Source of the DNA: Patescibacteria group bacterium
Lineage (GTDB): Bacteria > Patescibacteriota > Minisyncoccia > Minisyncoccales > Staskawiczbacteraceae
NCBI GenBank assembly: GCA_038065835.1
Contig: JBBTQB010000007.1
Coordinates: forward strand, 1 to 51,420
Reading direction: 5' to 3'
DNA length: 51,420 bases
Every line of letters starts with the position of its first letter. Position 1 is the stretch's first letter. The notes under the pieces were generated by a model. That model saw only the letters and a list, made by a program, of their open reading frames with translations. It had not been told where the DNA came from and did not search any database. Shown here in pieces: positions 5,832 to 34,894 of this stretch. Made by a program: the position numbers and the translations under genes.

Positions 5832-6698
5832 TCAGTTGAAGCTCAGCTCAACAGCTGAGGCTTCGGGATGTTCACCGTGCCCGATGTGGGGTTGGTAATC
5901 TTTCTCATCCCGCCATTTGAGAACAGCAGATATGCCACTGCTCTCGTACAGCCGTCCCAACTCATCCTTGTATCCTGGCCGGAAGTGACGATGCAAGAGG
6001 CCATCAGTACCAATGAGTACCCATAACACCTGATGGAGGTGGTCGATGTGCACCATTGTTCGATATTGAAGAACGGTTGGATCCCCGTTTAGCGTGGCCC
6101 AGCCGCCCTTGCCGATGTTCTTGTTGGCGTAACGCACGCGCTTTTCCTGGTAGTGCGGGTAGTACAGATTCCAGGCTTCGCCTTTGTTGCCACCAGCTTG
6201 CTCGAGGCACTTGCCATAGGCATTAATGTCCTGCTCCTCGACTTCGTGAGCGGCTTGGTCGAAACCAGACACGAAGTGGTACCCTTCCAAATCCTTCCAG
6301 AGCTGGAAGCAATCTCCCCCTAGAAATGTGAGAGCGACGTTATCGAAAATCCGACAGATGGCGAAGCTTGCTCCGCCCACATCGTCTCCATTGCAAGGAT
6401 CTTTGCCGATGCTCTGGTGCATTCGGCGGACTCCATCGTTTGTCTGGCGGAGAAAAGAGTAGAGATCAATAGGGCCATTCAAGGCTGCCGCATTGGCAGT
6501 GAGTACTATTGAGGCCATTTGCCCTCCCGTAAGCCCGCAACACGGGTAACGCACGGGTGGGTGCTTTGGGCAGTAGGCTGCCGAGTCGCCATCCGCAGTG
6601 GCATAGACCTGAGCTTCGTCGTTGCAGGATACCGCATCCTCCCTGATAGCCCTCTCATCCGACGGTGGACGGGAGAAGGGTTTGGCAGAAAATCTCAT
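5832..6698 (-). CDS. PP2C-like (PF13672-type) putative Ser/Thr phosphatase, compositionally foreign
   Basis: ATG at 6698 (MRFSAKPF) preceded by GGAGAG. Motif series REDAV, ATADGDSAAY, GGASFAI, GGDCFQLW, IGTDGLL resembles PP2C_2 metal-binding motifs. Clearly G+C-rich relative to both flanks. Confidence 0.5.
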   Translation of the reverse strand: MRFSAKPFSRPPSDERAIREDAVSCNDEAQVYATADGDSAAYCPKHPPVRYPCCGLTGGQMASIVLTANAAALNGPIDLYSFLRQTNDGVRRMHQSIGKDPCNGDDVGGASFAICRIFDNVALTFLGGDCFQLWKDLEGYHFVSGFDQAAHEVEEQDINAYGKCLEQAGGNKGEAWNLYYPHYQEKRVRYANKNIGKGGWATLNGDPTVLQYRTMVHIDHLHQVLWVLIGTDGLLHRHFRPGYKDELGRLYESSGISAVLKWRDEKDYQPHIGHGEHPEASAVELSFN

Positions 6699-6782
6699 GC
6701 ATCTCTCCACTGAAATGTGCTACTGCAGAAACCAAATCCCCCGCAGTATGGGTGCTAAGCAGAAATGCAAAGCATAGTAAAT

Positions 6783-6811
6783 ATATTATGACAAAGATTA
6801 TATACTGTCAA
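6783..6811 (-). promoter_or_regulatory. Sigma-70-type promoter for the G+C-rich gene
   Basis: Minus strand TTGACA (6811-6806), 17 nt spacer, TAATAT (6788-6783). About 85 nt upstream of the ATG and just downstream of the hpf stop. Confidence 0.55.
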
Positions 6812-14690: not shown

Positions 14691-15443
14691 TTATAAATAG
14701 TCAATACTTTTCTTAATTACTTCAAGACTCTTCGGCCCTTCATTAAATAATAAATCAATTGCGGAAAGATTTTCCATAAATGGCTCAAATCTTTGGGGGT
14801 AAATTGGGTGTTTGAAGTCCGAAAAAACGAGCTTTAGATTATTATCTTTAAACTTTTCTATTTCAATATAGGATTTTCCACCTGATCCCGAAAGATAGCT
14901 GTTTGCCTTGAATTCCTTGCATAATTCAATTATTAAATCTGTTCTTTCCAGAACGGGATTTTTCGCTTCGCGAATAAATCTCGCGTTCAGACCTTTAAAA
15001 TCGTAATCAGAACTTTTGATAAGGGTGGTTTTAATGCCTAATTCCCTCTTGATATATTGAATGATAGTCTCGTTCAAATCCACCAATTTTTGCCATTTTT
15101 TTGAATAAAGCTTTTCAAAGAACCCGCTGTATTTGTCAAAAAATGGAGTTCTCTTGTAATTAAAATAAATAAGTTGCCAATGGTGTTTTGCCCAGGGAGT
15201 AGAATTGTCTATTTGAACTTCATTTATCTTTTGGTATCCCTTTTTGTTGGCAAGAACTGGCACTGTCAGCCAAACCCAGCCCTGAGAATTAGAGTTAGTT
15301 CTAATTCGGTTACGATTTTGAAATCCCTTTCTAGAGAATTGAAGATGGTCAACCAAAATAAATTCATCGGCTTTAGCCATCTTATAAAAAAAGCCGAGGT
15401 AAGGAAGGTATTCTGGCTGATGAGCAGAAATAGTCATAAACAT
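14691..15443 (-). CDS. WbqC-family protein (copy 1)
   Basis: 250 aa. N-terminal AHQPEYLPYLGFF and FQNRNRIRT are typical of PF08889. Confidence 0.75.
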   Translation of the reverse strand: MFMTISAHQPEYLPYLGFFYKMAKADEFILVDHLQFSRKGFQNRNRIRTNSNSQGWVWLTVPVLANKKGYQKINEVQIDNSTPWAKHHWQLIYFNYKRTPFFDKYSGFFEKLYSKKWQKLVDLNETIIQYIKRELGIKTTLIKSSDYDFKGLNARFIREAKNPVLERTDLIIELCKEFKANSYLSGSGGKSYIEIEKFKDNNLKLVFSDFKHPIYPQRFEPFMENLSAIDLLFNEGPKSLEVIKKSIDYL

Positions 15444-15450
15444 GACACAA

Positions 15451-15540
15451 ATCTACAAATTTAATGCAAATTTACAGATATGCGAATACGTATTTGCATA
15501 TTCGTAGATTGGCATTATTTGCATCGTATTCGTATCTTAC
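15451..15540. repeat. Family-D AT-rich repeat array (ATTCGTA / ATTTGCAT words, imperfect palindrome)
   Basis: Near-palindrome ATGCGAATACGTATTTGCAT (15480-15499). ATTTGCAT occurs three times (one inverted) and ATTCGTA twice to three times. Shares words with 38588-38672. Confidence 0.7.
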
Positions 15541-15543
15541 AAT

Positions 15544-16212
15544 TTATTCGGGGGGCTTGTTTACGCCCTCTTTACCATAAACTCCGCGTCTTGACAAAAC
15601 CGCAAAAAAACCTAAAAATAATATTTTAAAATCCAGCCAAAAAGACCGATTTTCAACATACCAGACATCTAATTCTAACCTTTCCCGCCAAGATGATACA
15701 AAACCTCTTCCTTTAATATCCACTAAACATATTAGGCCAGGTTTTACTGATACTCTCTTTTGCCAAAGTGTAGCTGGAAGAATATTTTGGTTAGGATACT
15801 GAGGTAGAGGCCTTGGCCCAACTAGACTCATTTCTCCTTTTAAAATATTAATAAATTGGGGCAGCTCATCAAGCGTCCATTCTCTTAAAAATCTGCCTAC
15901 TCTTGTAATGCGGAAATCATCTTTTGAAACTCCAAGACCTAAACCAATTTTTTCTGCATTTTCTACCATTGTTCTGAACTTTAAAAACTTAAATAACTTT
16001 CCATTCTTTCCTACTCTGTCTTGAATAAAAAAAATCGGGCCTTTAGAGTCCAACTTTATTAATAAGGCAATAAGTAAAAACAGAGGCATTAAAAAAACAA
16101 AGGCAATTAAAGTTATCGTGAAGTCAATTATATTTTTTACCCCGTTAAATAATTTTGCCTTTGGTAAAATTACCGCCCTGCGGTATTTAACTGGGTGAAT
16201 TTTTTCCTTCAT
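15544..16212 (-). CDS. Small monotopic phosphoglycosyltransferase (bacterial sugar transferase, PglC/WbaP C-terminal type), copy 1
   Basis: KLDSKGPIFFIQDRVGKNGKLFKFLKFRTM and DELPQFINILKGEMSLVGPRP. Residues about 5-25 are encoded by repeat 16139-16196. Confidence 0.85.
   Translation of the reverse strand: MKEKIHPVKYRRAVILPKAKLFNGVKNIIDFTITLIAFVFLMPLFLLIALLIKLDSKGPIFFIQDRVGKNGKLFKFLKFRTMVENAEKIGLGLGVSKDDFRITRVGRFLREWTLDELPQFINILKGEMSLVGPRPLPQYPNQNILPATLWQKRVSVKPGLICLVDIKGRGFVSSWRERLELDVWYVENRSFWLDFKILFLGFFAVLSRRGVYGKEGVNKPPE
16139..16196. repeat. Family-F structured element spanning the WbqC stop / PGT N-terminus
   Basis: Termini ACCCCGTTAAATA (16139-16151) and TATTTAACTGGGT (16184-16196). 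Inner hairpins ATTTTGCC-ttt-GGTAAAAT and TACCGC-cct-GCGGTA. Confidence 0.85.
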
Positions 16213-16903
16213 CTGAGTTAAATATTATCTGTTTGCTCTCAGGACCCTTATTAAATAATAAATCGATTGATGACATGTTTGGCACGAATGGTTCATATTT
16301 TTGTTTGTAAATAGGGTGTTTGAATTCGCAATATTGATGAGAAAGCCCTGCTTTTTTAAACTTTGATTCATCAACATAAAGCTTGCCACCCTGTCCTGAC
16401 AAATAACCTTCAGCCCCTATCTTTTTGCACATGTCCAAGAGCATATCTGTTTTTTCGCCGACAATATTGTAATCAGAGTTTCTTAAAATTTTAATATCAG
16501 TGTCCAATATTTTAAAAATAGTCCTTAAAATAGTTTCGTTTAAATCTACAAGTTTTTCCCATTTTTTTGAATATATTTCTTCAAAAAAGGGAATGTAATT
16601 TTCAAAAAAGGGAGTGCTTTTATAAGAGTAATATATTGATTTAAAATGTTTTTCCCTCCATTTTAATTTGTTATTTATTAAAACATCTTTTATCTTTTGA
16701 TGGAAACGCCCATGTGTTATAACAGGAACTGTTAGCCAAATCCAGCCATCGGGCCCATTTGAAGTTCTTATTCTATTTCTATTTTGAAACGATTTTTTGG
16801 CATATTGGGTATTGTCAACAAAAACAAAAGTATCGGCATGCATTGCCTTACAAATAAGGCCTATATAAGGGAGATATTCTGGCTGATGTCCTGCGATTAT
16901 CAT
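16187..16903 (-). CDS. WbqC-family protein (copy 2)
   Basis: 238 aa. GHQPEYLPYIGL and FQNRNRIRT. Its TAA stop (16187-16189) lies inside the repeat terminus. Confidence 0.75.
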   Translation of the reverse strand: MIIAGHQPEYLPYIGLICKAMHADTFVFVDNTQYAKKSFQNRNRIRTSNGPDGWIWLTVPVITHGRFHQKIKDVLINNKLKWREKHFKSIYYSYKSTPFFENYIPFFEEIYSKKWEKLVDLNETILRTIFKILDTDIKILRNSDYNIVGEKTDMLLDMCKKIGAEGYLSGQGGKLYVDESKFKKAGLSHQYCEFKHPIYKQKYEPFVPNMSSIDLLFNKGPESKQIIFNSDEGKNSPS

Positions 16904-16914
16904 ATTTAGATATT

Positions 16915-16981
16915 GGGTGTTTGGTGTTAGGTTTTGGCTTATAACGATTCCCCGTTATCTAATACCTAACACCTAAAACCC
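16915..16981. repeat. Intercistronic long hairpin
   Basis: GGGTGTTTGGTGTTAGGT (16915-16932) pairs with ACCTAACACCTAAAACCC (16964-16981) at 16/18 positions. Inner ATAACG-attcc-CGTTAT contains the CCCCGTTA word. Confidence 0.75.
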
Positions 16982-16993
16982 ATCACCTAGCGC

Positions 16994-17611
16994 CTACTCA
17001 TAATCTTTAGAAATTCCGTCTTTGTCATACTGCAAATTGGTCAGCAGAATCATAAAGGGGGTTAAAAATAATATCTTAGAATCCAGCCACAAAGACCAAT
17101 GTTCTATGTACCAAATGTCCCATATTATCCTTTGTTTCCAGGGGAGATTATTGCCTCCCTTTATTATATCCATATTTGTAATCCCAGGTTTCGCCAAAAG
17201 TCTTTTCTTTTCGAGCTCTGTATATTTGACCACTTGGTGGGGCGAAGCCGGCCTAGGGCCCACCAAAGACATGCCATCAAAAATAACATTTATAAGCTGA
17301 GGAATTTCATCTAGTCCAACTCTTCTTATAACTTTCCCAACTCTTGTGACTCTTGGGTCGTCTTTAGATGTTTCATATCTCATGCCAATATGTTCTGTGT
17401 TTTGCTGCATTGTTCTAAATTTTAGCATTATAAATTCTTTTCCATTCCTACCTACCCTTTTTTGCTTAAAAATCACGGGGCCTTTTGAATCAAGCTTTAT
17501 CAAGATAGCTATAACTAAACATAATGGACTCAATAATATAAGCAAAAAAATAGAAAATAAAAGATCTATTATATCTTTTATAACGTACTGAATAGTTAGG
17601 CTTTTTTTCAC
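16994..17611 (-). CDS. Small monotopic phosphoglycosyltransferase, copy 2
   Basis: 205 aa. KLDSKGPVIFKQKRVGRNGKEFIMLKFRTM and DEIPQLINVIFDGMSLVGPRP. GTG start at 17611 lies inside the repeat terminus. Confidence 0.85.
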   Translation of the reverse strand: MKKSLTIQYVIKDIIDLLFSIFLLILLSPLCLVIAILIKLDSKGPVIFKQKRVGRNGKEFIMLKFRTMQQNTEHIGMRYETSKDDPRVTRVGKVIRRVGLDEIPQLINVIFDGMSLVGPRPASPHQVVKYTELEKKRLLAKPGITNMDIIKGGNNLPWKQRIIWDIWYIEHWSLWLDSKILFLTPFMILLTNLQYDKDGISKDYE

Positions 17612-17731
17612 GCCGTTAGAAGTCTGTTCTTATGGTACTTTAAAGTTATTTTGAACAGATATGTTACTTTAATATTAATTTGTTAGTACGTAACAGGAAA
17701 ATTTCAATGAAATTTTCCTGTCTAACGGGGT
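17610..17731. repeat. Family-B stop-to-start palindromic element (short copy)
   Basis: Termini ACGCCGTTAGAAGT (17610-17623) and GTCTAACGGGGT (17720-17731). The upstream TGA (17732-17734) abuts it and the downstream GTG (17611-17609) is embedded. Internal perfect hairpin CAGGAAAATTT-caatg-AAATTTTCCTG. Confidence 0.85.
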
Positions 17732-20900: not shown

Positions 20901-20921
20901 TATTTATAAAACTTAGTAATT

Positions 20922-20949
20922 AGAGTGCAGGATTCCAATCCTGCACTCT
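20922..20949. repeat. Family-A repeat, short hairpin form
   Basis: AGAGTGCAGGAT-tcca-ATCCTGCACTCT. Arms equal the outer 12 nt of the 51-bp palindrome arms. The last base overlaps the TAA stop of the epimerase gene. Confidence 0.9.
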
Positions 20950-21893
20950 TATTTCTCATGTTGCTTTTTGAACCAATCTACTGTTGAAGACAATCCCTTA
21001 TCTAAGTTGTATTGAGGCTGCCATCTAATAGCTCGTTTTGCCTTCTTAATAGACAAAGCTCCCCTTTTTAATACGCCTGTTGGCAAGGGAATATGTTTGG
21101 CTTCTTTTTTAAATCCGGTAATCTTCTTTAATTTATTAAAGATTTCCATAACTGAAGTTTCTCTGCCTGTGGCTACATTAATAATTCCATTGATATTTTT
21201 ATTGCAAGCAGCCATAGTAACTTTTATAGCATCATCAATAAAAATATAATCTTTTGTCTGCTTGCCGCTACCGTGGATAACACATTGTTTGCCCTGCAGC
21301 ATATTGTTAGCAAAAATTGCAACTACGCCCGCTTCTCCAAATGGATTCTGCCTGGGCCCATAAACATTACCGTAGCGCAGTGCCAAATAGCCTATGTTGT
21401 ACATCATAAAATAAGAATCCAAGTATTTCTCAAAAGCCAATTTGGCAACGCCGTAAGGAGATAAGGGACAAGGAAGATAATCTTCAGGTGTTGGCATGAC
21501 CTTTGCCCGGCCATATATTTCTCCTCCGCTAGAAGCAAAAACTATTTTTTTAACCCCAACACTGCGGCAGTTTTCCAAGATATTTAAACTTCCCAAAATA
21601 TTTGCTTTGGCATCAAAAATTGGATCTTTGACTGACTGCCTAGCTTCAATATGGGCGGCAAAATGAAAAACCATTTCCGGTTTTTCTTTCCTAAAAATAT
21701 TACCAATTTTAAAATCCGTAATGTCTTTTTTATAGAATTTAGCTCTCGCATTTATATTTTCCTTTTTACCGGCGGAAAGGTTATCAATAATAACTACTTT
21801 GTGGCCTTGTTCAAGCAGATTATCAACAAGATGGCTACCTATGAATCCGGCTCCACCAGTAACTAAGATATTTTTTTTGCTAAAACTTTTCAT
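20949..21893 (-). CDS. NAD-dependent sugar-nucleotide epimerase/dehydratase (GalE/WbpP-like SDR)
   Basis: 314 aa. ILVTGGAGFIGSHLV and catalytic SPYGVAKLAFEKY (YxxxK). Confidence 0.8.
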   Translation of the reverse strand: MKSFSKKNILVTGGAGFIGSHLVDNLLEQGHKVVIIDNLSAGKKENINARAKFYKKDITDFKIGNIFRKEKPEMVFHFAAHIEARQSVKDPIFDAKANILGSLNILENCRSVGVKKIVFASSGGEIYGRAKVMPTPEDYLPCPLSPYGVAKLAFEKYLDSYFMMYNIGYLALRYGNVYGPRQNPFGEAGVVAIFANNMLQGKQCVIHGSGKQTKDYIFIDDAIKVTMAACNKNINGIINVATGRETSVMEIFNKLKKITGFKKEAKHIPLPTGVLKRGALSIKKAKRAIRWQPQYNLDKGLSSTVDWFKKQHEK

Positions 21894-21898
21894 CTTAT

Positions 21899-23503
21899 TT
21901 ATAATTTTAGATACTTCTCTAAAAGTGGCACTTTGACGTTCTTTAATCTATCAAGTCCGAAGGGTAGTAGGCATAAAAGGGCTAAAAATGCCGGCATTCT
22001 AATTCTAGTTATCATGCCAAAATTATTTATGTAAAGAGACAAAACTCCAAAAATAAGAAGACTGAAAATAATTAAAGGCAAGATAACTTTGTAATTTACT
22101 TTTATGGATTTTAGCATACCCTTTATAATAAAGAATAGCAGAAAATACCAGGGGATTACTTCTGGCAAAACAAAAAGGTGTTTGGCTTTTTTTAACTGCC
22201 AGGGGAAGGGACCCAAAATAGAGTAAACAAAAGATAAGGAATTGCTTTTAAGAAATGAAATGGGATTGTCAAAACCAGCATCTATTACAATTGAGGAATC
22301 TTGAGCTATTGTACTTTTACCCTCTGGCAGAGGTATGGTTTCTTCTGCTTTTTTGGTTTCTTGAAGCTGAGATTTTGGGGGATAAGCTAGTTCTCTATAA
22401 CCAACAATTGTTTGGGGATTTAAAAAATTTTTAATAGCTTTTACACCCATATATCCTTGAGTAGCTCCGTCTAATGGAGCAATTCTCGGCAAAAAACCAA
22501 GAAGAAGAATCATTATAATTCCATAAATAACTCTTTTTTTAATTCTTAAATCACAAAAGCTAAACCAACAAATTATGAAACTTAAAATAAGTGCATAACC
22601 AATATAAAAACGGAAATGGGTCACTCCAGCCAACACAATATAGAAAATCAAAAAATTTAACCAGGAGAATTTTTTAATTATCTTTAAGGTCAACAACAAC
22701 CCAATAACGCTCAGTAAAACAACTAAAGCATCTTTTAATAACAAACTTCCGTAGAACGCCAAAGAGGGGTAAAAACAAACAATTAATCCCACAATGAAAC
22801 CTTCTTTTTTTGAACGACCTATTTGACAAACCAATAAAAAAACAAATACGGCTATGAGGGCAACTATCCAAGCGTTAAGCAACTGACCCATCAGCATGCT
22901 GGGAACTGTTAGAAGATAAACATAACCAATAGCAAGCGGATAGTAGTGGACCAGCGGCAAACCTAAGAATGGTAAACCTTCTAAAGAAAAATTTCCCGCA
23001 GAAACTCTTTTTGATATTTCTAGTGCAATTGCATGATATTCATTGAAATCTCCCCTTCCCTCACTGAATGGTTGAAAATCTGCATAATATACAAAAACAA
23101 CCATTACGATATGAATCAAAAAAACAATTAAAAAGAGTAGGGTTAAAAACTTTACCGTTTCCCCGCCCGCATCGCTATGCCAGCCTGCATTACCTGCGTT
23201 ATTATGTCTGGCAGGCGAAGCATTGCGGGCAGGCTTTTCTTTTACCCAGTTAGAAAGCTCTGCTTCTTTTTTCTCTTTTTCTAAAAAAGGACTATTGTTT
23301 GTTAAAATATTGCCCTTTCTAACGGGGTTTATTGTGTTAATAAAAAATAAAGCAATAGAAGATAAAAAAACAACAAATATAGCTCCTACAGCCAAATCTT
23401 TGTCAATCAAGGAAAGCAAAGCTAATATAATACAGATTAATATAACTTTATGATACCTTGAAAATGATTCTAAAAAATCCACCTCGTTAGAAGTTATGGG
23501 CAA
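21899..23503 (-). CDS. Polytopic membrane protein, GT-C-like (ArnT/PMT-type) or glycan polymerase/ligase; N-terminus built from repeats
   Basis: 534-aa ORF with at least 9 hydrophobic helices. An acidic loop GDFNEYH follows the helix FLTLLFLIVFLIHIVMVVFVYY. The first ~125 codons overlap three repeat copies, so the start is uncertain (TTG 23503 or GTG 23482). Confidence 0.4.
   Translation of the reverse strand: MPITSNEVDFLESFSRYHKVILICIILALLSLIDKDLAVGAIFVVFLSSIALFFINTINPVRKGNILTNNSPFLEKEKKEAELSNWVKEKPARNASPARHNNAGNAGWHSDAGGETVKFLTLLFLIVFLIHIVMVVFVYYADFQPFSEGRGDFNEYHAIALEISKRVSAGNFSLEGLPFLGLPLVHYYPLAIGYVYLLTVPSMLMGQLLNAWIVALIAVFVFLLVCQIGRSKKEGFIVGLIVCFYPSLAFYGSLLLKDALVVLLSVIGLLLTLKIIKKFSWLNFLIFYIVLAGVTHFRFYIGYALILSFIICWFSFCDLRIKKRVIYGIIMILLLGFLPRIAPLDGATQGYMGVKAIKNFLNPQTIVGYRELAYPPKSQLQETKKAEETIPLPEGKSTIAQDSSIVIDAGFDNPISFLKSNSLSFVYSILGPFPWQLKKAKHLFVLPEVIPWYFLLFFIIKGMLKSIKVNYKVILPLIIFSLLIFGVLSLYINNFGMITRIRMPAFLALLCLLPFGLDRLKNVKVPLLEKYLKL
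23161..23234. repeat. Family-C G+C-rich imperfect palindrome, intragenic
   Basis: GCCCGCA...TGCGGGC, TCGC/GCGA and GCCAG/CTGGC pairings. Shares the words GGCGAAG, GCGGGCAGGC and CCTGC with 8210-8268. Read in frame as ...ARNASPARHNNAGNAGWHSDAGGE... Confidence 0.7.
23244..23328. repeat. Family-B-type element, intragenic, opposite orientation
   Basis: Termini ACCCAGTTAGAAAG (23244-23257) and CTTTCTAACGGGGT (23315-23328), 13/14 complementary. Read in frame as NPVRKGNILTNNSPFLEKEKKEAELSNWV. Confidence 0.75.
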
Positions 23504-23670
23504 AATGTCATATGGGACATTTTGCTTACTCTTTGTTAATTTTTATTATTTACCTTATTTTAACCCATTGAAGTTTTAATTATCCTCATACAAACCCCGT
23601 TAGGGGTTTGTTTCTTTTGCATTTACCTTAAAACTCCTTGACCTCTAACGGGGCAAACTTCTAACGGAGT
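23481..23670. repeat. Family-B stop-to-start palindromic element (long copy 2)
   Basis: Termini ACCTCGTTAGAAGT (23481-23494) and ACTTCTAACGGAGT (23657-23670). Nested pair ACCCCGTTAGGGG (23594-23606) and ACCTCTAACGGGG (23641-23653). TGA of the upstream GT4 at 23671-23673 abuts it. High similarity to 33804-34027. Confidence 0.9.
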
Positions 23671-24687
23671 TCATCTTAAAACGTTATTGATTAAATCCAG
23701 CCATTCTTGGTTAAACCTTTCTATAGTAAAATCTTTGGCGTAATTATAACCTATCTGACCGATTTTTTTTCTTTCCTCTGAATTATTCAGTAAATATTCC
23801 ACCTTCTGTTTTAATTCCTTAAAATCGGTGCAAATTATCTGTCCCCCATTCTCCAATAACTCTCTCATTCCACCCATTCCAGAACCAATTGTAGGCACTT
23901 TCAAAAGCATTGCCTCATGAGTGGTCATAGACCAACCCTCTTTAAATTTAGACATCGTTACAACAACGGAAGATGCTTTCAGCAAGATTAAATAATTTTT
24001 ATAATCTAAATCAAGATTTAGCGTTGGGACTTCAACTTCTTTTCTGCCAGAGGTAACAAGATAAACATCTAAGTCTTTAAGCGCTTCATAAGCATCAACG
24101 ACACCTTTTGGTTTTTGACAGTTTCCAAGATATACTATCGGTTTTCCTTCTAACTTATATTTTTTCTTAAACTCTGAAACTTCTTCTGCTGTAATGTTAA
24201 AATTATTCATACTAAACCCGCAATAAATTTTGCAGACATTTTTGTATCCTTTCTCTAAAAAATAATTCTTCCAGTATTCAGATATTACAACAGTAGCATC
24301 TGCTCTTTTTACCTGAATGTAAAAAAAAGTTTTTTCTAATAAGGGTAACAGCAATCTTGGAATTAAACGAAACCCCGAAAAATCAATGTGAAAAATCAAA
24401 GTTAAGTTTTTGCCTCTTGTATTTTTTTTATTTAATGTGATTGTTGAATAAAAATCTCTTATCCAAAGGTCTTTTTTGCCTCTAAAAAACAAAAGCTTTA
24501 TAAAAGACTCTAAACTTTTAAGGTATCTGTTTTTAAAATAATTTGCCTCTAAATTTACGTACTCTACATCAAAAGTTCCAGATAAGGTGTTAATAACTTG
24601 ATTTTTGTAAATATTCCCCCCAGATCTTTTTGAAAAAATGTTAATCAAACCGATAGTTTCCATGATAGTTATACTGTTTCCCTCCAA
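23671..24687 (-). CDS. GT4-family glycosyltransferase
   Basis: 338 aa. C-terminal EGWSMTTHEAMLLKVPTIGSGMGGMRELLENG (E-x7-E). The true start may be ATG 24663 (METIGLINIF). Confidence 0.7.
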   Translation of the reverse strand: MEGNSITIMETIGLINIFSKRSGGNIYKNQVINTLSGTFDVEYVNLEANYFKNRYLKSLESFIKLLFFRGKKDLWIRDFYSTITLNKKNTRGKNLTLIFHIDFSGFRLIPRLLLPLLEKTFFYIQVKRADATVVISEYWKNYFLEKGYKNVCKIYCGFSMNNFNITAEEVSEFKKKYKLEGKPIVYLGNCQKPKGVVDAYEALKDLDVYLVTSGRKEVEVPTLNLDLDYKNYLILLKASSVVVTMSKFKEGWSMTTHEAMLLKVPTIGSGMGGMRELLENGGQIICTDFKELKQKVEYLLNNSEERKKIGQIGYNYAKDFTIERFNQEWLDLINNVLR

Positions 24688-25634: not shown

Positions 25635-25730
25635 TTATAATAATTTTAATAAAAATTGAAAGGCATAACATCATAGCTCTGATTAATAGACCTTACCACA
25701 AAAATCAGCTTATTTTCAAGTATTTATATT

Positions 25731-25897
25731 GTGAGCTTGGTGAATAATGCCATATTGGCGTCTTTATCTAAAATATCGGCTGCAAATTGGTAAAGATTAT
25801 TCAACGATGCCCTCTGGCATCGCCTCATAATCTTTACCAATTTTCGCTGTGATATTTTAAACAAATCCATCCAAAGAGCATTATTCACCAAGCTCAC
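25731..25897. repeat. 167-bp nested palindrome upstream of the SDR/GT4 sub-operon
   Basis: Perfect 20-bp inverted repeat GTGAGCTTGGTGAATAATGC (25731-25750) / GCATTATTCACCAAGCTCAC (25878-25897). Inside it are the 16-bp pair AATTGGTAAAGATTAT / ATAATCTTTACCAATT and the core GATGCC-ctct-GGCATC. Confidence 0.9.
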
Positions 25898-25921
25898 GTT
25901 ATAATGTACAAACATGGCGCG

Positions 25922-26040: not shown

Positions 26041-26871
26041 TTAAATATTTTTTAATTCTAGTTTCATAATCACCTGTTTGAGAACGCCGATGATTTGCCT
26101 GATCGTCGGATTAGGTTCAGGAAAACTTACCGATACCACAGCCCCATACAGAGTCTCAAAGGAACGTTTATAGCCTTTTTCTTTGCGGGGTCTTCCGCTG
26201 CGTTCTTTACGCTCTTCCTTACCCCTGTCTTTTGCATTATGCAACTGCTCGCGAAGTCTGCCACCAGGAATTTTTTCATCAATTACCTCTTGAAGAACCT
26301 TTGGCTGCTCCTTTTCGGGAATTCCTGATACTTGGTAAAGATTTTCCATTCCAACCTTGCTCGCTCCTGCTGAAGATGCGATCTTTTTAGCTTTTGGGCC
26401 AAGATTCTTAGCAACACTAAGCACCTTGCTAACCCATGATTCGCTTTTATGAACCATTGCTGCAATCTCTATTAAAGTTTTCTTGCGTTCTTCTTTATGA
26501 GCTAGCAACTCTTCTGCTAATTCTATGGGCGACAGATCTTCCCTATGAAGATTTTCGATCAGCCGGATTTTGCTAATGTTGCCATCGCTGATGTCAGCAA
26601 CAATTACCGGAATGGCATGCAAGTTGGCTAATTTGGCCGCTCGTCTGCGACGATCGCCGCATACGGTTTCATATCTCAAACTGCCCTTTTTAGGACGCGC
26701 TAACACCGGCTGAATTATGCCGACATCGGCGATACTCTGAGACAATTCCCTTAGGGAAGAGTCTCCCTTTGTAGGATCAACTGTCCTCAATGCTTTGGCC
26801 GGCGGCTCTAAATGTTTGACTTTCATCATCAAAAACTGAGGATTCCATTTTTCGATTCCGATGACAGCCAT
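26041..26871 (-). CDS. Orphan ParB/KorB-like DNA-binding protein (ParB N-terminal domain + HTH)
   Basis: 276 aa. Arginine patch GDRRRRAA, IENLHREDLSPIELAE, HTH-like SESWVSKVLSVAKNL, basic tail. Strong SD GGAGGT 5 nt before the ATG. G+C visibly above the neighbours. Confidence 0.75.
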   Translation of the reverse strand: MAVIGIEKWNPQFLMMKVKHLEPPAKALRTVDPTKGDSSLRELSQSIADVGIIQPVLARPKKGSLRYETVCGDRRRRAAKLANLHAIPVIVADISDGNISKIRLIENLHREDLSPIELAEELLAHKEERKKTLIEIAAMVHKSESWVSKVLSVAKNLGPKAKKIASSAGASKVGMENLYQVSGIPEKEQPKVLQEVIDEKIPGGRLREQLHNAKDRGKEERKERSGRPRKEKGYKRSFETLYGAVVSVSFPEPNPTIRQIIGVLKQVIMKLELKNI

Positions 26872-28897: not shown

Positions 28898-28948
28898 AGA
28901 GTGCAGGATTCGAACTATCATCAATTGATAGTTCGAATCCTGCACTCT
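28898..28948. repeat. Family-A 51-bp perfect palindrome (23-bp arms, 5-nt loop)
   Basis: AGAGTGCAGGATTCGAACTATCA-tcaat-TGATAGTTCGAATCCTGCACTCT. Contains the TGA stop of the methyltransferase and ends 15 nt before the GT4 ATG. Confidence 0.95.
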
Positions 28949-29946: not shown

Positions 29947-31439
29947 TTTTGTGATGTCAAAAACCTTTTTATTTCCTTGCAGATAAACTGGTAATTATTT
30001 TTATCATTTGGGTCTTTCGCATAAAGGATATCTGCCAAGATACTGTTCCTCAAATAAGAAATAATGAATCTCATATTAATTTCCTCCAAATTCACCCCGT
30101 TAGAGGTTTGCTTTGTTTCATTTTCTCTCAAGACTCCCTGATCTCTAATGGGGTTGGGTAAATCCCAATTTATTTGAAGGTCTCTTTTTATTTTTTCCTT
30201 TAAGTCTTCAAAGTTTACTACCTTTTGGCATAAAGGATGATAAGAATAAAATACGTTTCCCAAAACATAGACTGGTTTTCCCTGTATTGCCGCTTCCATG
30301 CCAACCGTGCTGGTCATGGTAATTACGCCTATTGAATTAGCAATAACGTTTGGCGTTGATTCTTCTGAAGACAACAATACAGCATTGGGTATTTTTTTTA
30401 TCTCTTCGTAAAACTGATTGGTCCTTGAGCCAATAGAGCCCGGATGCTCTTTTAAACATAATTTATAAGGAAATGGCAGGGTGGCTGAAACATATTTTAT
30501 GGTAGCTAACTGGTTTGAATAATAGGTTGCTAAAACTAAAGTTGAAGCTTCCGGCTCGTATTGAATAGGAAAAAAGAAATATTTGTCTTTTGAGCTAAGC
30601 TTATTAAATATATTTCCCTGGAGTTTGATTTTAATATTTTTTTTAATGGTTCTAAATGGAGCCATAAGGCTTCTCCTTAACACTGCCTCGCTTTCGTAGT
30701 CAAATCTCTTAACTTTGGACCTATCCAAAAAATACCTGAAGAAAACGTAGCTGGATTCTTTAAGTCTTCTTAAGTAATGTCTAATATAATCAAATAAACT
30801 AAATCTTACTTTGACTATATAATAAGAAGAATAAATGGTTTTGTGAGATATGAACTTTTTTATGAAATTTTTGGCAAATTCTGTTTCGCCCGGCAAAAAA
30901 TCTTCCTTTTTCAAATTTTTGAAATTATCTTCAAATTTTGAGCAGGTCCATTCTAAGTCCCAAATATCTATCCTACCCGGGAAGCGCGATTCGGCGATGC
31001 CACAAAAAGGAATATTATTTTTTTTAGTAAAATAGTAAGCCACCTCGCCAAAAAGCCCTGGCGGCGGTTCCCCAATTACAATATCTGGCTTTTCATAACT
31101 AAAAATGTAGTCAAAAAATTGATAAAGTTGATTTACTATATCCAAAGATTGATTGTAATTGTACCTATTATAAAGATTAAACCTTTCAAAAACAGTAAAA
31201 AGCTCTCTCCAGCTCAAATTCCCAAAGTCTTTTTTTGAAGAATCGTAGTTTTTAATGCACCAATCTATTTTTGATAAAAACTTGGAATTTTTAGGAAAAA
31301 ACTTGCCCTTTTCATACTCAGCAATCTTGCTGTTAAAAACAACCAAACATTCATCTCCTTCTTTTGTAAGCTGATGGGAAATCTTGCCTAAAAATTCAAA
31401 TAAATATGACGCATCATTTATTAAAAATAGCCATTTCAT
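29943..31439 (-). CDS. Capsule polysaccharide biosynthesis protein (KpsS/LpsZ-like, Capsule_synth family)
   Basis: 498 aa. YFFFPIQYEPEAS...CLKEHPGS...ITMTSTVGMEAAIQGKPVYVLG pattern. Carries the in-frame repeat 30094-30154 near the C-terminus. Confidence 0.5.
   Translation of the reverse strand: MKWLFLINDASYLFEFLGKISHQLTKEGDECLVVFNSKIAEYEKGKFFPKNSKFLSKIDWCIKNYDSSKKDFGNLSWRELFTVFERFNLYNRYNYNQSLDIVNQLYQFFDYIFSYEKPDIVIGEPPPGLFGEVAYYFTKKNNIPFCGIAESRFPGRIDIWDLEWTCSKFEDNFKNLKKEDFLPGETEFAKNFIKKFISHKTIYSSYYIVKVRFSLFDYIRHYLRRLKESSYVFFRYFLDRSKVKRFDYESEAVLRRSLMAPFRTIKKNIKIKLQGNIFNKLSSKDKYFFFPIQYEPEASTLVLATYYSNQLATIKYVSATLPFPYKLCLKEHPGSIGSRTNQFYEEIKKIPNAVLLSSEESTPNVIANSIGVITMTSTVGMEAAIQGKPVYVLGNVFYSYHPLCQKVVNFEDLKEKIKRDLQINWDLPNPIRDQGVLRENETKQTSNGVNLEEINMRFIISYLRNSILADILYAKDPNDKNNYQFICKEIKRFLTSQK
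30094..30154. repeat. Family-B core hairpin, intragenic and in frame
   Basis: ACCCCGTTAGAGGT (30094-30107) and ATCTCTAATGGGGT (30141-30154). About 80 percent identical by eye to the inner unit of 33951-34010. Translated NPIRDQGVLRENETKQTSNGV. Confidence 0.85.
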
Positions 31440-32871: not shown

Positions 32872-33805
32872 TTATTATTTTACCATTGTTATTCGCGCTT
32901 TTTTTTATGGCAAACAAAACTTTTAGAACTTCCAATCCGTCCTGCCCCGTGCTTTGAGGCCGTTCTCTTTTTTCTAAGCAAGAGACAATATGCCAAACCA
33001 TTTGAGCCATTAAACTTCTCTGGCTTCCTATTTTTAAATTATTGTAACTTATCTGCATCCCTAATTTTTTAAGAAATAATTTATTCTTTTCACCATAGAA
33101 AGACCATTCGGTAAGTTTTTGCTTTTCGCTTACAGATTGAAGAAATGCCCTTGCTCCACTTTTAAAGAAGATTATTGCATCAACGTTTTTATCTCTTTTG
33201 GGGTTGGATGTTAAATTATTGTAAAAACCAATTACCTCCTTTACTTCGCCTAGAAACATTCTCAGTAAATCCATAATATGGGTTCCATTATTAAAAAGAC
33301 CATTGTGGTAAGCCGAATAAGATTGCAACACGTTTCCCAAAATTCCATTCTTAACTTTTCTTTGCCATCTTTGTATTAAAGAATCAAAGTGCCTTGAGTG
33401 GTTTACAAACAAAAGGCATTTTTTCTGACGACACAATTTAACCATCTCTTTGGCTTCCCCAAGAGAATCAGCAATTGGTTTTTCACAAACTATTGCTTTT
33501 ACTCCCAAGCCCGCTGCCATTTTAACAAACTTATAGTGGGTATTAGTATGAGTCGCTACCGAGACAATATCGGGTTTGGTTTCTTTAAGCATCTTTTTGG
33601 CTGATGAATATAAAGAGACGTCTGGAAAAAGTTTCTTAGCTTTTTTTAATTTTTCAGAATCAATATCACAAAGACCTACCAATTCAATTTTGGAGTTTTT
33701 AAAATAAGCCGCGGCGTGAGTAGCTGGCCTTACGTTTCTTGAGTAATTCCATTCTTGGGCTCCAATCCGACCGCAACCAATAACTACTGCTTTGTATTTT
33801 TTCAC
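32858..33805 (-). CDS. Gfo/Idh/MocA-family sugar-nucleotide oxidoreductase
   Basis: 315 aa. N-terminal Rossmann KAVVIGCGRIG. GTG start at 33805 embedded in the repeat terminus. Confidence 0.8.
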   Translation of the reverse strand: MKKYKAVVIGCGRIGAQEWNYSRNVRPATHAAAYFKNSKIELVGLCDIDSEKLKKAKKLFPDVSLYSSAKKMLKETKPDIVSVATHTNTHYKFVKMAAGLGVKAIVCEKPIADSLGEAKEMVKLCRQKKCLLFVNHSRHFDSLIQRWQRKVKNGILGNVLQSYSAYHNGLFNNGTHIMDLLRMFLGEVKEVIGFYNNLTSNPKRDKNVDAIIFFKSGARAFLQSVSEKQKLTEWSFYGEKNKLFLKKLGMQISYNNLKIGSQRSLMAQMVWHIVSCLEKRERPQSTGQDGLEVLKVLFAIKKSANNNGKIINVVH

Positions 33806-34027
33806 CCCGTTAGAAGTATGGGCAAAATGTTAATCATGAGACCTGGTCTTATCAACGAGGCCGGGTCTCGTTGTGACAATTTGCTTGCTCTTTGTTAATA
33901 ATTATCATATTAAATTTTGACTCATTAAAGCTTTTTACTACCTTATCCAAACCCCGTTAGAGGTTTGTTTCTTTTGCATTTACCTTAAAGCTCCTTGACC
34001 TCTAACGGGGCAAACTTCTAACGGGGT
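33804..34027. repeat. Family-B stop-to-start palindromic element (long copy 1, with nested insert)
   Basis: Termini ACCCCGTTAGAAGT (33804-33817) and ACTTCTAACGGGGT (34014-34027). Nested pair at 33951-33964 / 33998-34010. A 44-nt G+C-rich insert (33831-33874) splits a hairpin that is intact in the 23481-23670 copy. Confidence 0.9.
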
Positions 34028-34894
34028 TCATTCTTTTACACAATCAACCAAGAAAGCATTGGCCATGAAATGGCCGTACCAATCTTTTGATTTTTTTACT
34101 TCCAATTGTCTTTTAAATCTTTCTAACTTATCTTTATATTTATTTTCTATCAATCTAGGTAGGGGGAAAAAGCTATAAAAATATTTCTGCAATAACCTGA
34201 GTTTGTACTTAGCGAGTTCTTCACCAATCGTTAAGGGGTTGGTTGTTTCAACATAAATATTATCCCTAGCAATCTTAGCTGAATAATCTGGCTTGTTTGG
34301 GTGTGTTATTAGGCTCTCTAGGTCCTTAACTATGCCTTTGCCTAATAACTTTTCTAACCTCAACGGTTCAAAAAACTTCTCTTCAAAAAAATAAATGGTG
34401 TATTTATTGAAAGTGAATAAATCAAAAAGAGCGTTTTGGAAGGTAGCCATCATATGGCCTTTGGGTTTTAGTAAGCGATGAATTTTTATATACAATTGGC
34501 TTCTTTTTTTTGGAGGCAAATACTGAAATACTCCCATTAGAATAACAAAATCAAAAGAATTTTTAGGCAAGCTACCTAATTCTTTGATACTTCCCCTAAT
34601 AATGCTGTCTTCACTAAAACCCGCTTCTTTGAGACGTCCTTTTGCTAATCTGAATAATTCCTTGCCTTTTTCAATTCCCTTAGCTTTAATACCGAGCTTT
34701 AGCATTTTCAATAGCAAAGCTCCCCCGCCGCATCCAAAATCTAAGACAGTAATCTTGCTTTTATTTTTTTCTCTATACTCTGGCAGGATTAACTCAAGAA
34801 ATATTTCGTCTCTGGGAGCATGAGCTGAAAAATAACCTTCGGCTAAATCTTCAAAATACTTTTTTGTTTTTTTGGCATTATATTTATGAACCAT
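34028..34894 (-). CDS. Class I SAM-dependent methyltransferase
   Basis: 288 aa. Motif I VLDFGCGGGALL. Confidence 0.7.
   Translation of the reverse strand: MVHKYNAKKTKKYFEDLAEGYFSAHAPRDEIFLELILPEYREKNKSKITVLDFGCGGGALLLKMLKLGIKAKGIEKGKELFRLAKGRLKEAGFSEDSIIRGSIKELGSLPKNSFDFVILMGVFQYLPPKKRSQLYIKIHRLLKPKGHMMATFQNALFDLFTFNKYTIYFFEEKFFEPLRLEKLLGKGIVKDLESLITHPNKPDYSAKIARDNIYVETTNPLTIGEELAKYKLRLLQKYFYSFFPLPRLIENKYKDKLERFKRQLEVKKSKDWYGHFMANAFLVDCVKE

Follow-up and report, generated by a model that had tools for sequence, protein, structure and literature searches.

Several kinds of small palindromic repeat have been described in bacteria, and some of them come close to the repeats that we report here from a sugar and polysaccharide biosynthesis cluster of a Patescibacteria group bacterium. 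The Correia/NEMIS elements of Neisseria, together with ERIC and RUP, are non-coding transposable elements of the miniature inverted-repeat type (MITEs) of 100–200 nt that lie in transcribed intergenic DNA. The insertion sequences IS1397 and ISKpn1 insert into the loops of palindromes of the repetitive extragenic palindromic (REP) and bacterial interspersed mosaic element (BIME) type. A further kind is formed by the REP/REPIN-RAYT systems (REPIN, REP doublet forming a hairpin; RAYT, REP-associated tyrosine transposase), and the locus discussed here shares with them a short hairpin (21–33 nt) in many dispersed copies, inverted doublets of this hairpin, and a Y1/HUH transposase-like gene between inverted hairpins (PMC3116915, PMC3337134, PMC5581495). 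With the Rickettsia palindromic elements it shares palindromes that sit in frame in unrelated genes, where the added peptide is tolerated (PMC10969869, section 4.2).

The window, by which we mean the whole stretch of DNA analysed, comprises 51,420 nt and corresponds to the ENA contig Hain_H51_01um_R3_247, obtained from Hainich groundwater by 0.1-µm filter passage. Its G+C content is about 34%, its long open reading frames (ORFs) all lie on the − strand, and secA is found at one end of the biosynthesis cluster. An earlier note, made from the sequence alone, had pointed to two long copies of a repeat, here called family B, and to a hairpin that is intact in one copy and split by a G+C-rich segment in the other. 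The idea of a repeat inserted into a repeat is supported by our analysis: family B has received a second mobile hairpin. Family B itself is very probably a non-autonomous inverted-repeat transposable element, that is a MITE, of Patescibacteria, with a layer of mini-elements and a REP-type guest.

Family B and its target duplications

Family B is represented in the window by copy A (23482–23669, − strand, 188 nt, CTCCGTTAGAAGT...ACTTCTAACGAGG) and copy B (33805–34026, − strand, 222 nt). Both were delimited from the sequence and from an alignment of copies, copy B also from the empty junctions in L007 and L006, where L-numbers denote comparison loci that were fetched. The proposed homology of the two copies is borne out and reaches beyond their termini, since they align along their whole length: on the gene (−) strand 80 of the first 85 positions are equal, the right ends differ by a 1-nt indel and one substitution, and the mean column identity is 83% over an alignment of 264 columns, short flanks included. 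A third element with the same termini and another interior (TGAA-CCCCGTTAGAC...CTTCTAACGGCG-TGAA) lies at 17611–17730 (− strand), so that the window holds three family-B-type copies and, as described below, two solo members. The window contains 10 occurrences of the core CCGTTAGA, where 0.66 would be expected, and 0 of 100 shuffles reached 10. Three independent assemblies, from wells H51 and H41, agree over 240/240 nt in copy B with its insert, which is therefore not an assembly artefact; several other assemblies end within the elements, as is expected of repeats.

What does a typical member look like? The basic form of these CCCCGTTAGA-type elements measures 124–132 nt and reads ATGAA, CCCCGTTAGAAGTTTGGAT ... 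AAACTTCAATGGG ... an A+T-rich stretch ... AAGAGCAA GCAAAAAATATTTT-loop-AAAATATTTTTTGC CCAGACTTCTAACGGGG, TGAA, where the terminal motif recurs internally as a third, degenerate copy, AAACTTCAATGGG. The 13-nt inverted termini are CCCCGTTAGAAGT / ACTTCTAACGGGG; the termini (13–15 nt) pair over 14–15 bp in 16/16 aligned copies, and those of the window are listed as inverted repeats I13 and I18. An A+T-rich hairpin, GCAAAA...TTTTGC, lies immediately inward of the right terminus. In copy A this hairpin is intact, as the earlier note had stated, and spans 23500–23525 (− strand; GCAAAATGTC-CCATAT-GACATTTTGC, with the loop also read as ATATGG); compensatory changes across copies support it. Family B and the mini-elements are non-coding, range from 29 to 300 nt and occur in several copies per genome.

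With the right end TGCCCANACTTCTAACGGGGTG, a query independent of the insert, 185,579 species genomes were scanned, and 19 copies were found in five GTDB genomes. The hosts are two metagenome-assembled genomes (MAGs) of Ca. Staskawiczbacteria, one Hainich Patescibacteria MAG and two MAGs labelled Saccharibacteria; the right-end matches number 10 in ERP125453_co1_163, 5 in ERP119705_co24_179 and 4 in H43-bin145_1. Viral contigs gave 0 matches for this right end and 0 for the REP core introduced below, and thus no sign of phage carriage. In one comparison locus (L068, 4116–4383) two family-B-type elements stand in tandem with one TGAA shared between them, as is expected if one element inserted into the duplicated target of the other.

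Evidence for insertion comes from 4-bp duplications, which occur with the five sequences TTTG, TTCA, TTTA/TAAA, TAAA and TGAA; for most of these, an empty site is known. Copy A is flanked on its left by TGAA (23670–23673, − strand), which holds the TGA stop of a glycosyltransferase gene (23673–23671), and on its right by TGGA (23478–23481). Copy B lies between TGAA at 34027–34030, with the TGA stop of a methyltransferase gene, and TGAA at 33801–33804. Its site, the junction between the methyltransferase and an oxidoreductase gene, has a 5-nt spacer in L007 and L008 and is element-free in L006. Conversely, the start of the epimerase gene is empty in the window and holds a family-B-like element in L009. 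On the evidence of these sequence comparisons, both family B and the mini-elements insert at the DNA level.

The site of copy A is occupied in L009 by an unrelated inverted-repeat element. It belongs to a different family (AATTACCTTGAATTACGAAATG...; 6622–6804 and 4385–4560 in L009), which is found at this orthologous site and also nested in the family-B element of L009, at the same GAAGTTTG position that is discussed below for the mini-elements. The family has 0 copies in the window.

Mini-elements within family B and within genes

Both long copies carry a second layer. A 59-nt mini-element (CCCCGTTAGAGGT-33 nt-ACCCCTAACGGGG) is nested in copy A at 23595–23653 (− strand), with a TTTG duplication at 23654–23657 and 23591–23594, and another in copy B at 33952–34010 (− strand), likewise with a TTTG duplication. 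Each directly follows GAAGTTTG and has the form CCCCGTTAGAGGT-33 nt-ACC(T/C)CTAACGGGG, with inverted repeats related to those of family B. The empty site GAAGTTTGGAT is seen in basic copies such as those of L054, L062 and L104, among others. L108 has the 59-nt module at another place of a family-B copy, here with a duplication of TTCA, and other copies show the corresponding empty site ACTTCAATGGG. The composite left end CCGTTAGAAGTNNNCCCCGTTAGAGG found 0 matches in genome contigs, compared with 19 for the plain right end, so the composite with its nested mini-element is rare.

Related members also occur in coding sequences. A solo 59-nt mini-element (30095–30153, − strand) lies in frame in a 498-aa Capsule_synth gene, where it adds 21 residues that are absent from 14/14 aligned homologs (54–74% identical to the window protein). 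An 83-nt member (CCCCGTTAGAAAG...CTTTCTAACTGGG; 23245–23327, − strand) with a TAAA duplication lies in frame in a membrane protein gene; its 83+4=87 nt add 29 residues that the L009 ortholog lacks. A pilin gene contains a 29-nt hairpin with a TTTA/TAAA duplication, and the prepilin signal has its GFT motif doubled, one on each side of this hairpin. The lengths of the in-frame insertions (29, 59 and 83 nt) each become divisible by 3 when 4 is added, and homologs without them exist.

The membrane protein gene also contains, in frame and directly behind the 83-nt element, an imperfect G+C-rich palindrome of 73 nt (GCCTGCCCGC...GCGGGCGGG, 23162–23234, − strand), whose residues are absent from the L009 ortholog.

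In contrast to the Rickettsia palindromic elements, which measure about 150 nt, the in-frame members described here are 29–83 nt long, end in clear inverted repeats of 13 nt flanked by a 4-bp duplication, and belong to another host phylum; moreover, the same superfamily also makes the element found at gene starts.

Insertion at start codons

In 21/23 complete family-B copies, ATGAA precedes the element and TGAA follows it, and the terminal G of the element together with TG opens a long ORF. ATGA is retained in the left duplicate and provides a stop in those cases where the upstream gene had overlapped the start; the last G of the element and the right duplicate together make GTGA, so that a new GTG now starts the gene at its original first codon. 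The genes downstream of the copies are mutually unrelated (L24, S6, L36, SSB, phosphoglycerate kinase, SecG, RNase H, ATP synthase delta), and their Pfam profiles match from position 1, which identifies the GTG as the true first codon. In 129 kb of genome loci we counted about 20 ATGAA gene starts against 356 TGAA outside long ORFs; by this crude estimate about 5% of tolerated random TGAA hits would fall on a start, far under what is observed.

Element-free orthologs begin with ATGAAA (the oxidoreductase in L007 and the epimerase in the window) or ATGGAT (the membrane protein in L009). When the element and one TGAA are removed from copy B, the remainder GTAAAAGAATGAAAAAATAC is a normal 4-nt ATGA stop/start overlap; with the element in place, the GFO/IDH/MocA oxidoreductase starts with GTG at 33805–33803, in the end of copy B. 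For copy A, the earlier note had suggested that the terminus supplies the first codon of the membrane protein, either GTG 23482 or TTG 23503. The first of these holds: the GTG at 23482–23480, whose first base is the last G of copy A, starts a protein of 527 aa, and as the L009 ortholog begins with ATGGATTTTTTAGAT and its protein can be aligned with that of the window from residue 1 onwards, it is this GTG and not TTG 23503 that is the real start. The TTG lies inside the element, and it is the start chosen by the gene caller (21899–23503). The third element, 17611–17730, supplies both the TGA stop of a 630-aa glycosyltransferase and the GTG start of a sugar transferase, which was called as 179 aa (16994–17611) compared with 205 aa from the GTG in the element end. 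The rebuilt GTG sits behind a hairpin of 130–220 nt with no obvious Shine-Dalgarno sequence.

The same third element forms the upstream edge of a tandem duplication (14691–17611), in which a pair of genes, WbqC-like and sugar transferase, is repeated with 72–77% identity in DNA between the pairs (repeats D2, D4–D6).

How does this compare with known MITEs? Non-coding multicopy elements of small size with inverted termini and a target duplication are what family B consists of, and only a known autonomous partner is missing from the features of a MITE. Terminal inverted repeats, a short target duplication, many copies and long hairpins are all shared with Correia/NEMIS, ERIC and RUP, as is, presumably, co-transcription with neighbouring genes. 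The duplication of family B is 4 bp, compared with TA in the Correia elements. A second difference is that surviving family-B copies lie on the start codon itself, which they rebuild as GTG, and that no parent insertion sequence is known. The term 'start codon' is absent from a review of MITEs (PMC10969869). We found no description of a MITE that sits on and rebuilds start codons, nor any of RAYT, REP or MITE in Patescibacteria, the candidate phyla radiation (CPR) or Parcubacteria, in a literature coverage that was incomplete.

The position at gene starts invites another view, in which family B is mainly a structured cis-acting RNA, such as a translation leader, and the 43-nt segment of copy B a variable helix extension that is not mobile. 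Both copies that were folded are far more stable than shuffled sequence (z = -4.8 and -6.4), pairing in the hairpin by the right terminus is kept by two-sided, compensatory changes at 8 positions, and the elements occupy a fixed orientation and position at start codons, those of essential genes included; an extra hairpin in a terminal loop is, furthermore, the usual way in which structured RNAs vary. Yet the segment lives independently in 92 contigs, with a transposase-like gene of its own, and the 4-bp duplications with their empty sites, as well as the related members within coding sequences, speak for insertion of DNA. Nor are the terminal stems of the window copies preserved as a strict RNA requirement would have it: they carry uncompensated mismatches, CTCC versus GAGG in copy A and CCCC versus GGCG in 17611–17730. 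Rfam gave no match at gathering score in the window, and in two loci with basic copies only a chance-level match to a plant hairpin precursor (E = 0.42). We therefore consider an RNA that does not move improbable, although family B may have a role as RNA besides its mobility. Terminator-like matches on the non-coding strand are the hairpins of the family-B element itself, and promoter-like sites in the window do not exceed the shuffled expectation.

A REP-type doublet in the loop of copy B

To return to family B as a MITE, the third layer is the segment that splits the hairpin of copy B. The arms GCAAAATGTT (33822–33831) and GACAATTTGC (33875–33884) lie 43 nt apart, and the site filled between them corresponds to the intact hairpin of copy A. 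The earlier note had placed a G+C-rich stretch of 44 nt at 33831–33874; the stretch is indeed richer in G+C than the rest of the copy (50% versus 37%), and the two palindromes seen in it, GAGACC/GGTCTC and CAACGAG/CTCGTTG, both fall within 33832–33874. From a core search and from the other carriers, this segment (33832–33874, − strand) reads as an inverted doublet in which CAACGAGACCCGGCCTCGTTG precedes a second, degenerate unit (ATAAGACCAGGTCTCAT).

The exact 21-nt core CAACGAGGCCGGGTCTCGTTG (33853–33873 in copy B) has a 7-bp stem and a 7-nt loop and was found in 127 exact copies in 92 metagenome contigs, many of them from Hainich, so that free-standing copies of the core of the insert do exist. 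Their flanks are very diverse. Inverted pairs are frequent (L010, L012, L015, L050, L057 and every family-B carrier), and some arrays of half units occur.

In more than 10 contigs, three copies of the core mark a unit of about 770 nt: two inverted copies flank an ORF of 232–234 aa, and one lies inside it, read in frame as QRDPASL at a conserved position. Examples are the ORFs at 199–897 in L047, with hairpins at 144 (+) and 912 (−), and at 761–1465 in L098, with hairpins at 706 (−) and 1513 (+); the ORF at 2263–2967 in L051 has a similar arrangement. The Pfam profile Y1_Tnp (IS200-like) matches these ORFs with 24.8–29.1 bits at a cut-off of 23, and the motifs HFHIL and YI.TNP are visible in their translations. 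L047 contains the whole unit in two mirror-image copies, one close to each contig end.

As the free-standing core both flanks a Y1/IS200-like gene and sits inside it, the 43-nt insert looks like a doublet of the REP/REPIN type. A dispersed short palindrome, inverted doublets and a Y1 gene flanked by hairpins, three features of REP/REPIN-RAYT systems, are all present. Several differences should be kept in mind. The host is a member of the Patescibacteria; the hairpin is also common in coding sequences, even in that of its own transposase-like gene (QRDPASL); the doublet is tight, with no spacer; the 5' GTAG/CGTC tag is not evident, as judged by eye only; and the protein of about 232 aa is a distant match to the RAYT model. 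A parallel for the nesting itself is IS1397/ISKpn1, where likewise a mobile element specifically enters the hairpin loop of another repeat. There, however, a full insertion sequence enters a REP, whereas here a REP-type hairpin is the guest and a MITE the host.

Is the doublet an insertion, or was it there from the beginning? It is absent from copy A and from 19/19 copies of the insert-independent scan; with the exception of one that is truncated, these 19 have at the site a hairpin that is plain and A+T-rich. Nine family-B copies from Hainich and JGI metagenomes do bear it, all at the same position and in the same orientation. It would be conceivable that the segment is ancestral to family B and was lost from copy A by deletion between the hairpin arms, as the uniform placement in nine carriers might suggest, together with a copy in L024 whose interior is nearly identical to that of copy A and which nonetheless has the doublet. 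But the nine carriers were found by searching metagenomes for the doublet itself, and the unconditioned sample contains none. The stem bases beside the doublet differ among carriers (GTCA, CCCT, CTAC, AATA, GCTT), and the element of L069 has doublets at three positions. An ancestral doublet is thus very improbable; in agreement with the earlier note, the segment is derived. With regard to how it entered, the differing stem bases and the three doublets of L069 lean towards a loop that was targeted more than once, in a strand-specific manner. The doublet occupies the same loop in the same orientation in at least eight other family-B copies, and its insertion may therefore have happened elsewhere than at this locus.

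The repeats can hardly be integron-like attC sites that mark gene cassettes of the polysaccharide cluster. All genes lie on one strand, the repeats start at stop codons and finish at starts, and they are imperfect palindromes of variable length whose conserved ends contain GTTAGAA/TTCTAAC; but while the top strand of attC reads RYYYAAC...GTTRRRY, the motifs stand here in the reverse order (GTTAGAA towards the 5' end, TTCTAAC towards the 3' end), the window has no integrase, 4-bp duplications are present, and copies precede ribosomal protein genes and lie inside coding sequences. We rejected this identity on the reversed motif order and the missing integrase.

We thus arrive at three nested layers: family B, a 59-nt mini-element of the same superfamily, and a REP-type doublet from a different system. 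The earlier note had argued for at least two mobile element types, and the target duplications, empty sites and in-frame insertions agree with this, with the number of layers being three and not two. Its claim of recent or ongoing mobility fares less well, given that copy B is identical in the three assemblies and that the inverted repeats of copy A have acquired uncompensated mutations.

Some observations count against the picture of a MITE with a REP-type guest. No presence/absence polymorphism is seen at copy B among the three assemblies. The duplication at 30095–30153 is imperfect (CCAA versus TGAA), and two short members, in L067 and L017, have none. A constant TGAA and a fixed orientation of the element are unusual for a cut-and-paste DDE enzyme. 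Within the 127 fetched loci, no pair of termini was found around a transposase gene, in a search that was not exhaustive; terminus pairs 2.6 kb apart (L013, L017, L018, L028, L051) were considered as an autonomous element and rejected, as each consists of the 29-nt pilin-gene hairpin and an unrelated half site. As to the guest, CAACGAGGCCGGGTCTCGTTG occurs at one locus only in the 51-kb window, where no second REP copy was found, and no RAYT-like gene was noticed in those window ORFs that were examined. The sole NCBIfam match of the RAYT-like protein, REP_Tyr_transpos, is weak (E about 4e-9; 36 bits, with the curated cut-off at 80), and a sequence search of the PDB gave no match. Finally, the constant position and orientation of the doublet in its nine carriers may also reflect a single old insertion that later spread with its host.

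Other repeats of the window

A further repeat family has a perfect palindrome with 23-bp arms, AGAGTGCAGGATTCGAACTATCA / TGATAGTTCGAATCCTGCACTCT, between two genes at 28898–28948; L007 lacks a spacer at this junction. A shorter copy lies at 20915–20956 and a half copy at the contig end (51370–51400). The motif of this palindrome adjoins truncated family-B copies in L024 and L064, and a related motif stands just past the copy of L093. ARAGORN found no tRNA at the palindrome. More generally, a tRNA/tmRNA scan of the window found none, and a 31-mer containing GGATTCGAAC, which had been considered as a tRNA, was rejected as it is a palindromic repeat with no tRNA found.

Between a TylF-like methyltransferase gene and the epimerase gene, the segment 25640–26990 contains a ParB_N gene (26041–26871), an ORF of 80 aa and long inverted repeats (25724–25904). 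It looks inserted, since the syntenic L009 holds only a family-B-like element of 300 nt there.

Mechanism and implications

How could such elements move? A single transposase or two related ones, cutting with a 4-bp stagger, would mobilise family B and the mini-elements in trans. IS1380-type elements, with CC ends and 4–5-bp duplications according to the ISfinder family table, provide a lead only. The REP doublet would in turn be moved by the RAYT-like enzyme into single-stranded hairpin loops, which would explain its constant orientation. The enrichment at start codons could result from a preference for TGAA/ATGAA targets combined with survivorship: a copy on a start codon has to be deleted exactly, and a sloppy deletion in these streamlined, deletion-biased genomes breaks the gene, so such copies persist.

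More tentatively, family B might be a transposable element specialised on start codons, that is a portable module of translational control instead of inert selfish DNA. It would land between the A and the TGAA of ATGAA, retain the former ribosome-binding region with its ATG to the left, where they form a short upstream frame (MNPVRSL...), and rebuild a GTG on its right. Ribosomes could then be coupled to this GTG in two ways: either the terminal stem bridges the old ribosome-binding region to the GTG, or translation of the short frame from the orphan ATG unmasks it.

MITEs and REP/RAYT systems are known kinds, and it is the behaviour at start codons that deserves follow-up. The genomes of Patescibacteria are very small and tightly packed, and mobile DNA is usually considered scarce in them, yet at this locus at least three families of tiny non-coding mobile elements are layered on each other. 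One family swaps ATG for GTG at start codons, essential genes included, and its relatives lengthen proteins in frame. In practice, such repeats break metagenome assemblies and mislead the calling of start codons. If the reading as a control module is true, a structured insert of 130–220 nt is tolerated even before the genes for L24, S6 and L36. And if the position on the start codon reflects function and not survivorship, it would represent a new way in which a transposon is tolerated or translation is regulated.

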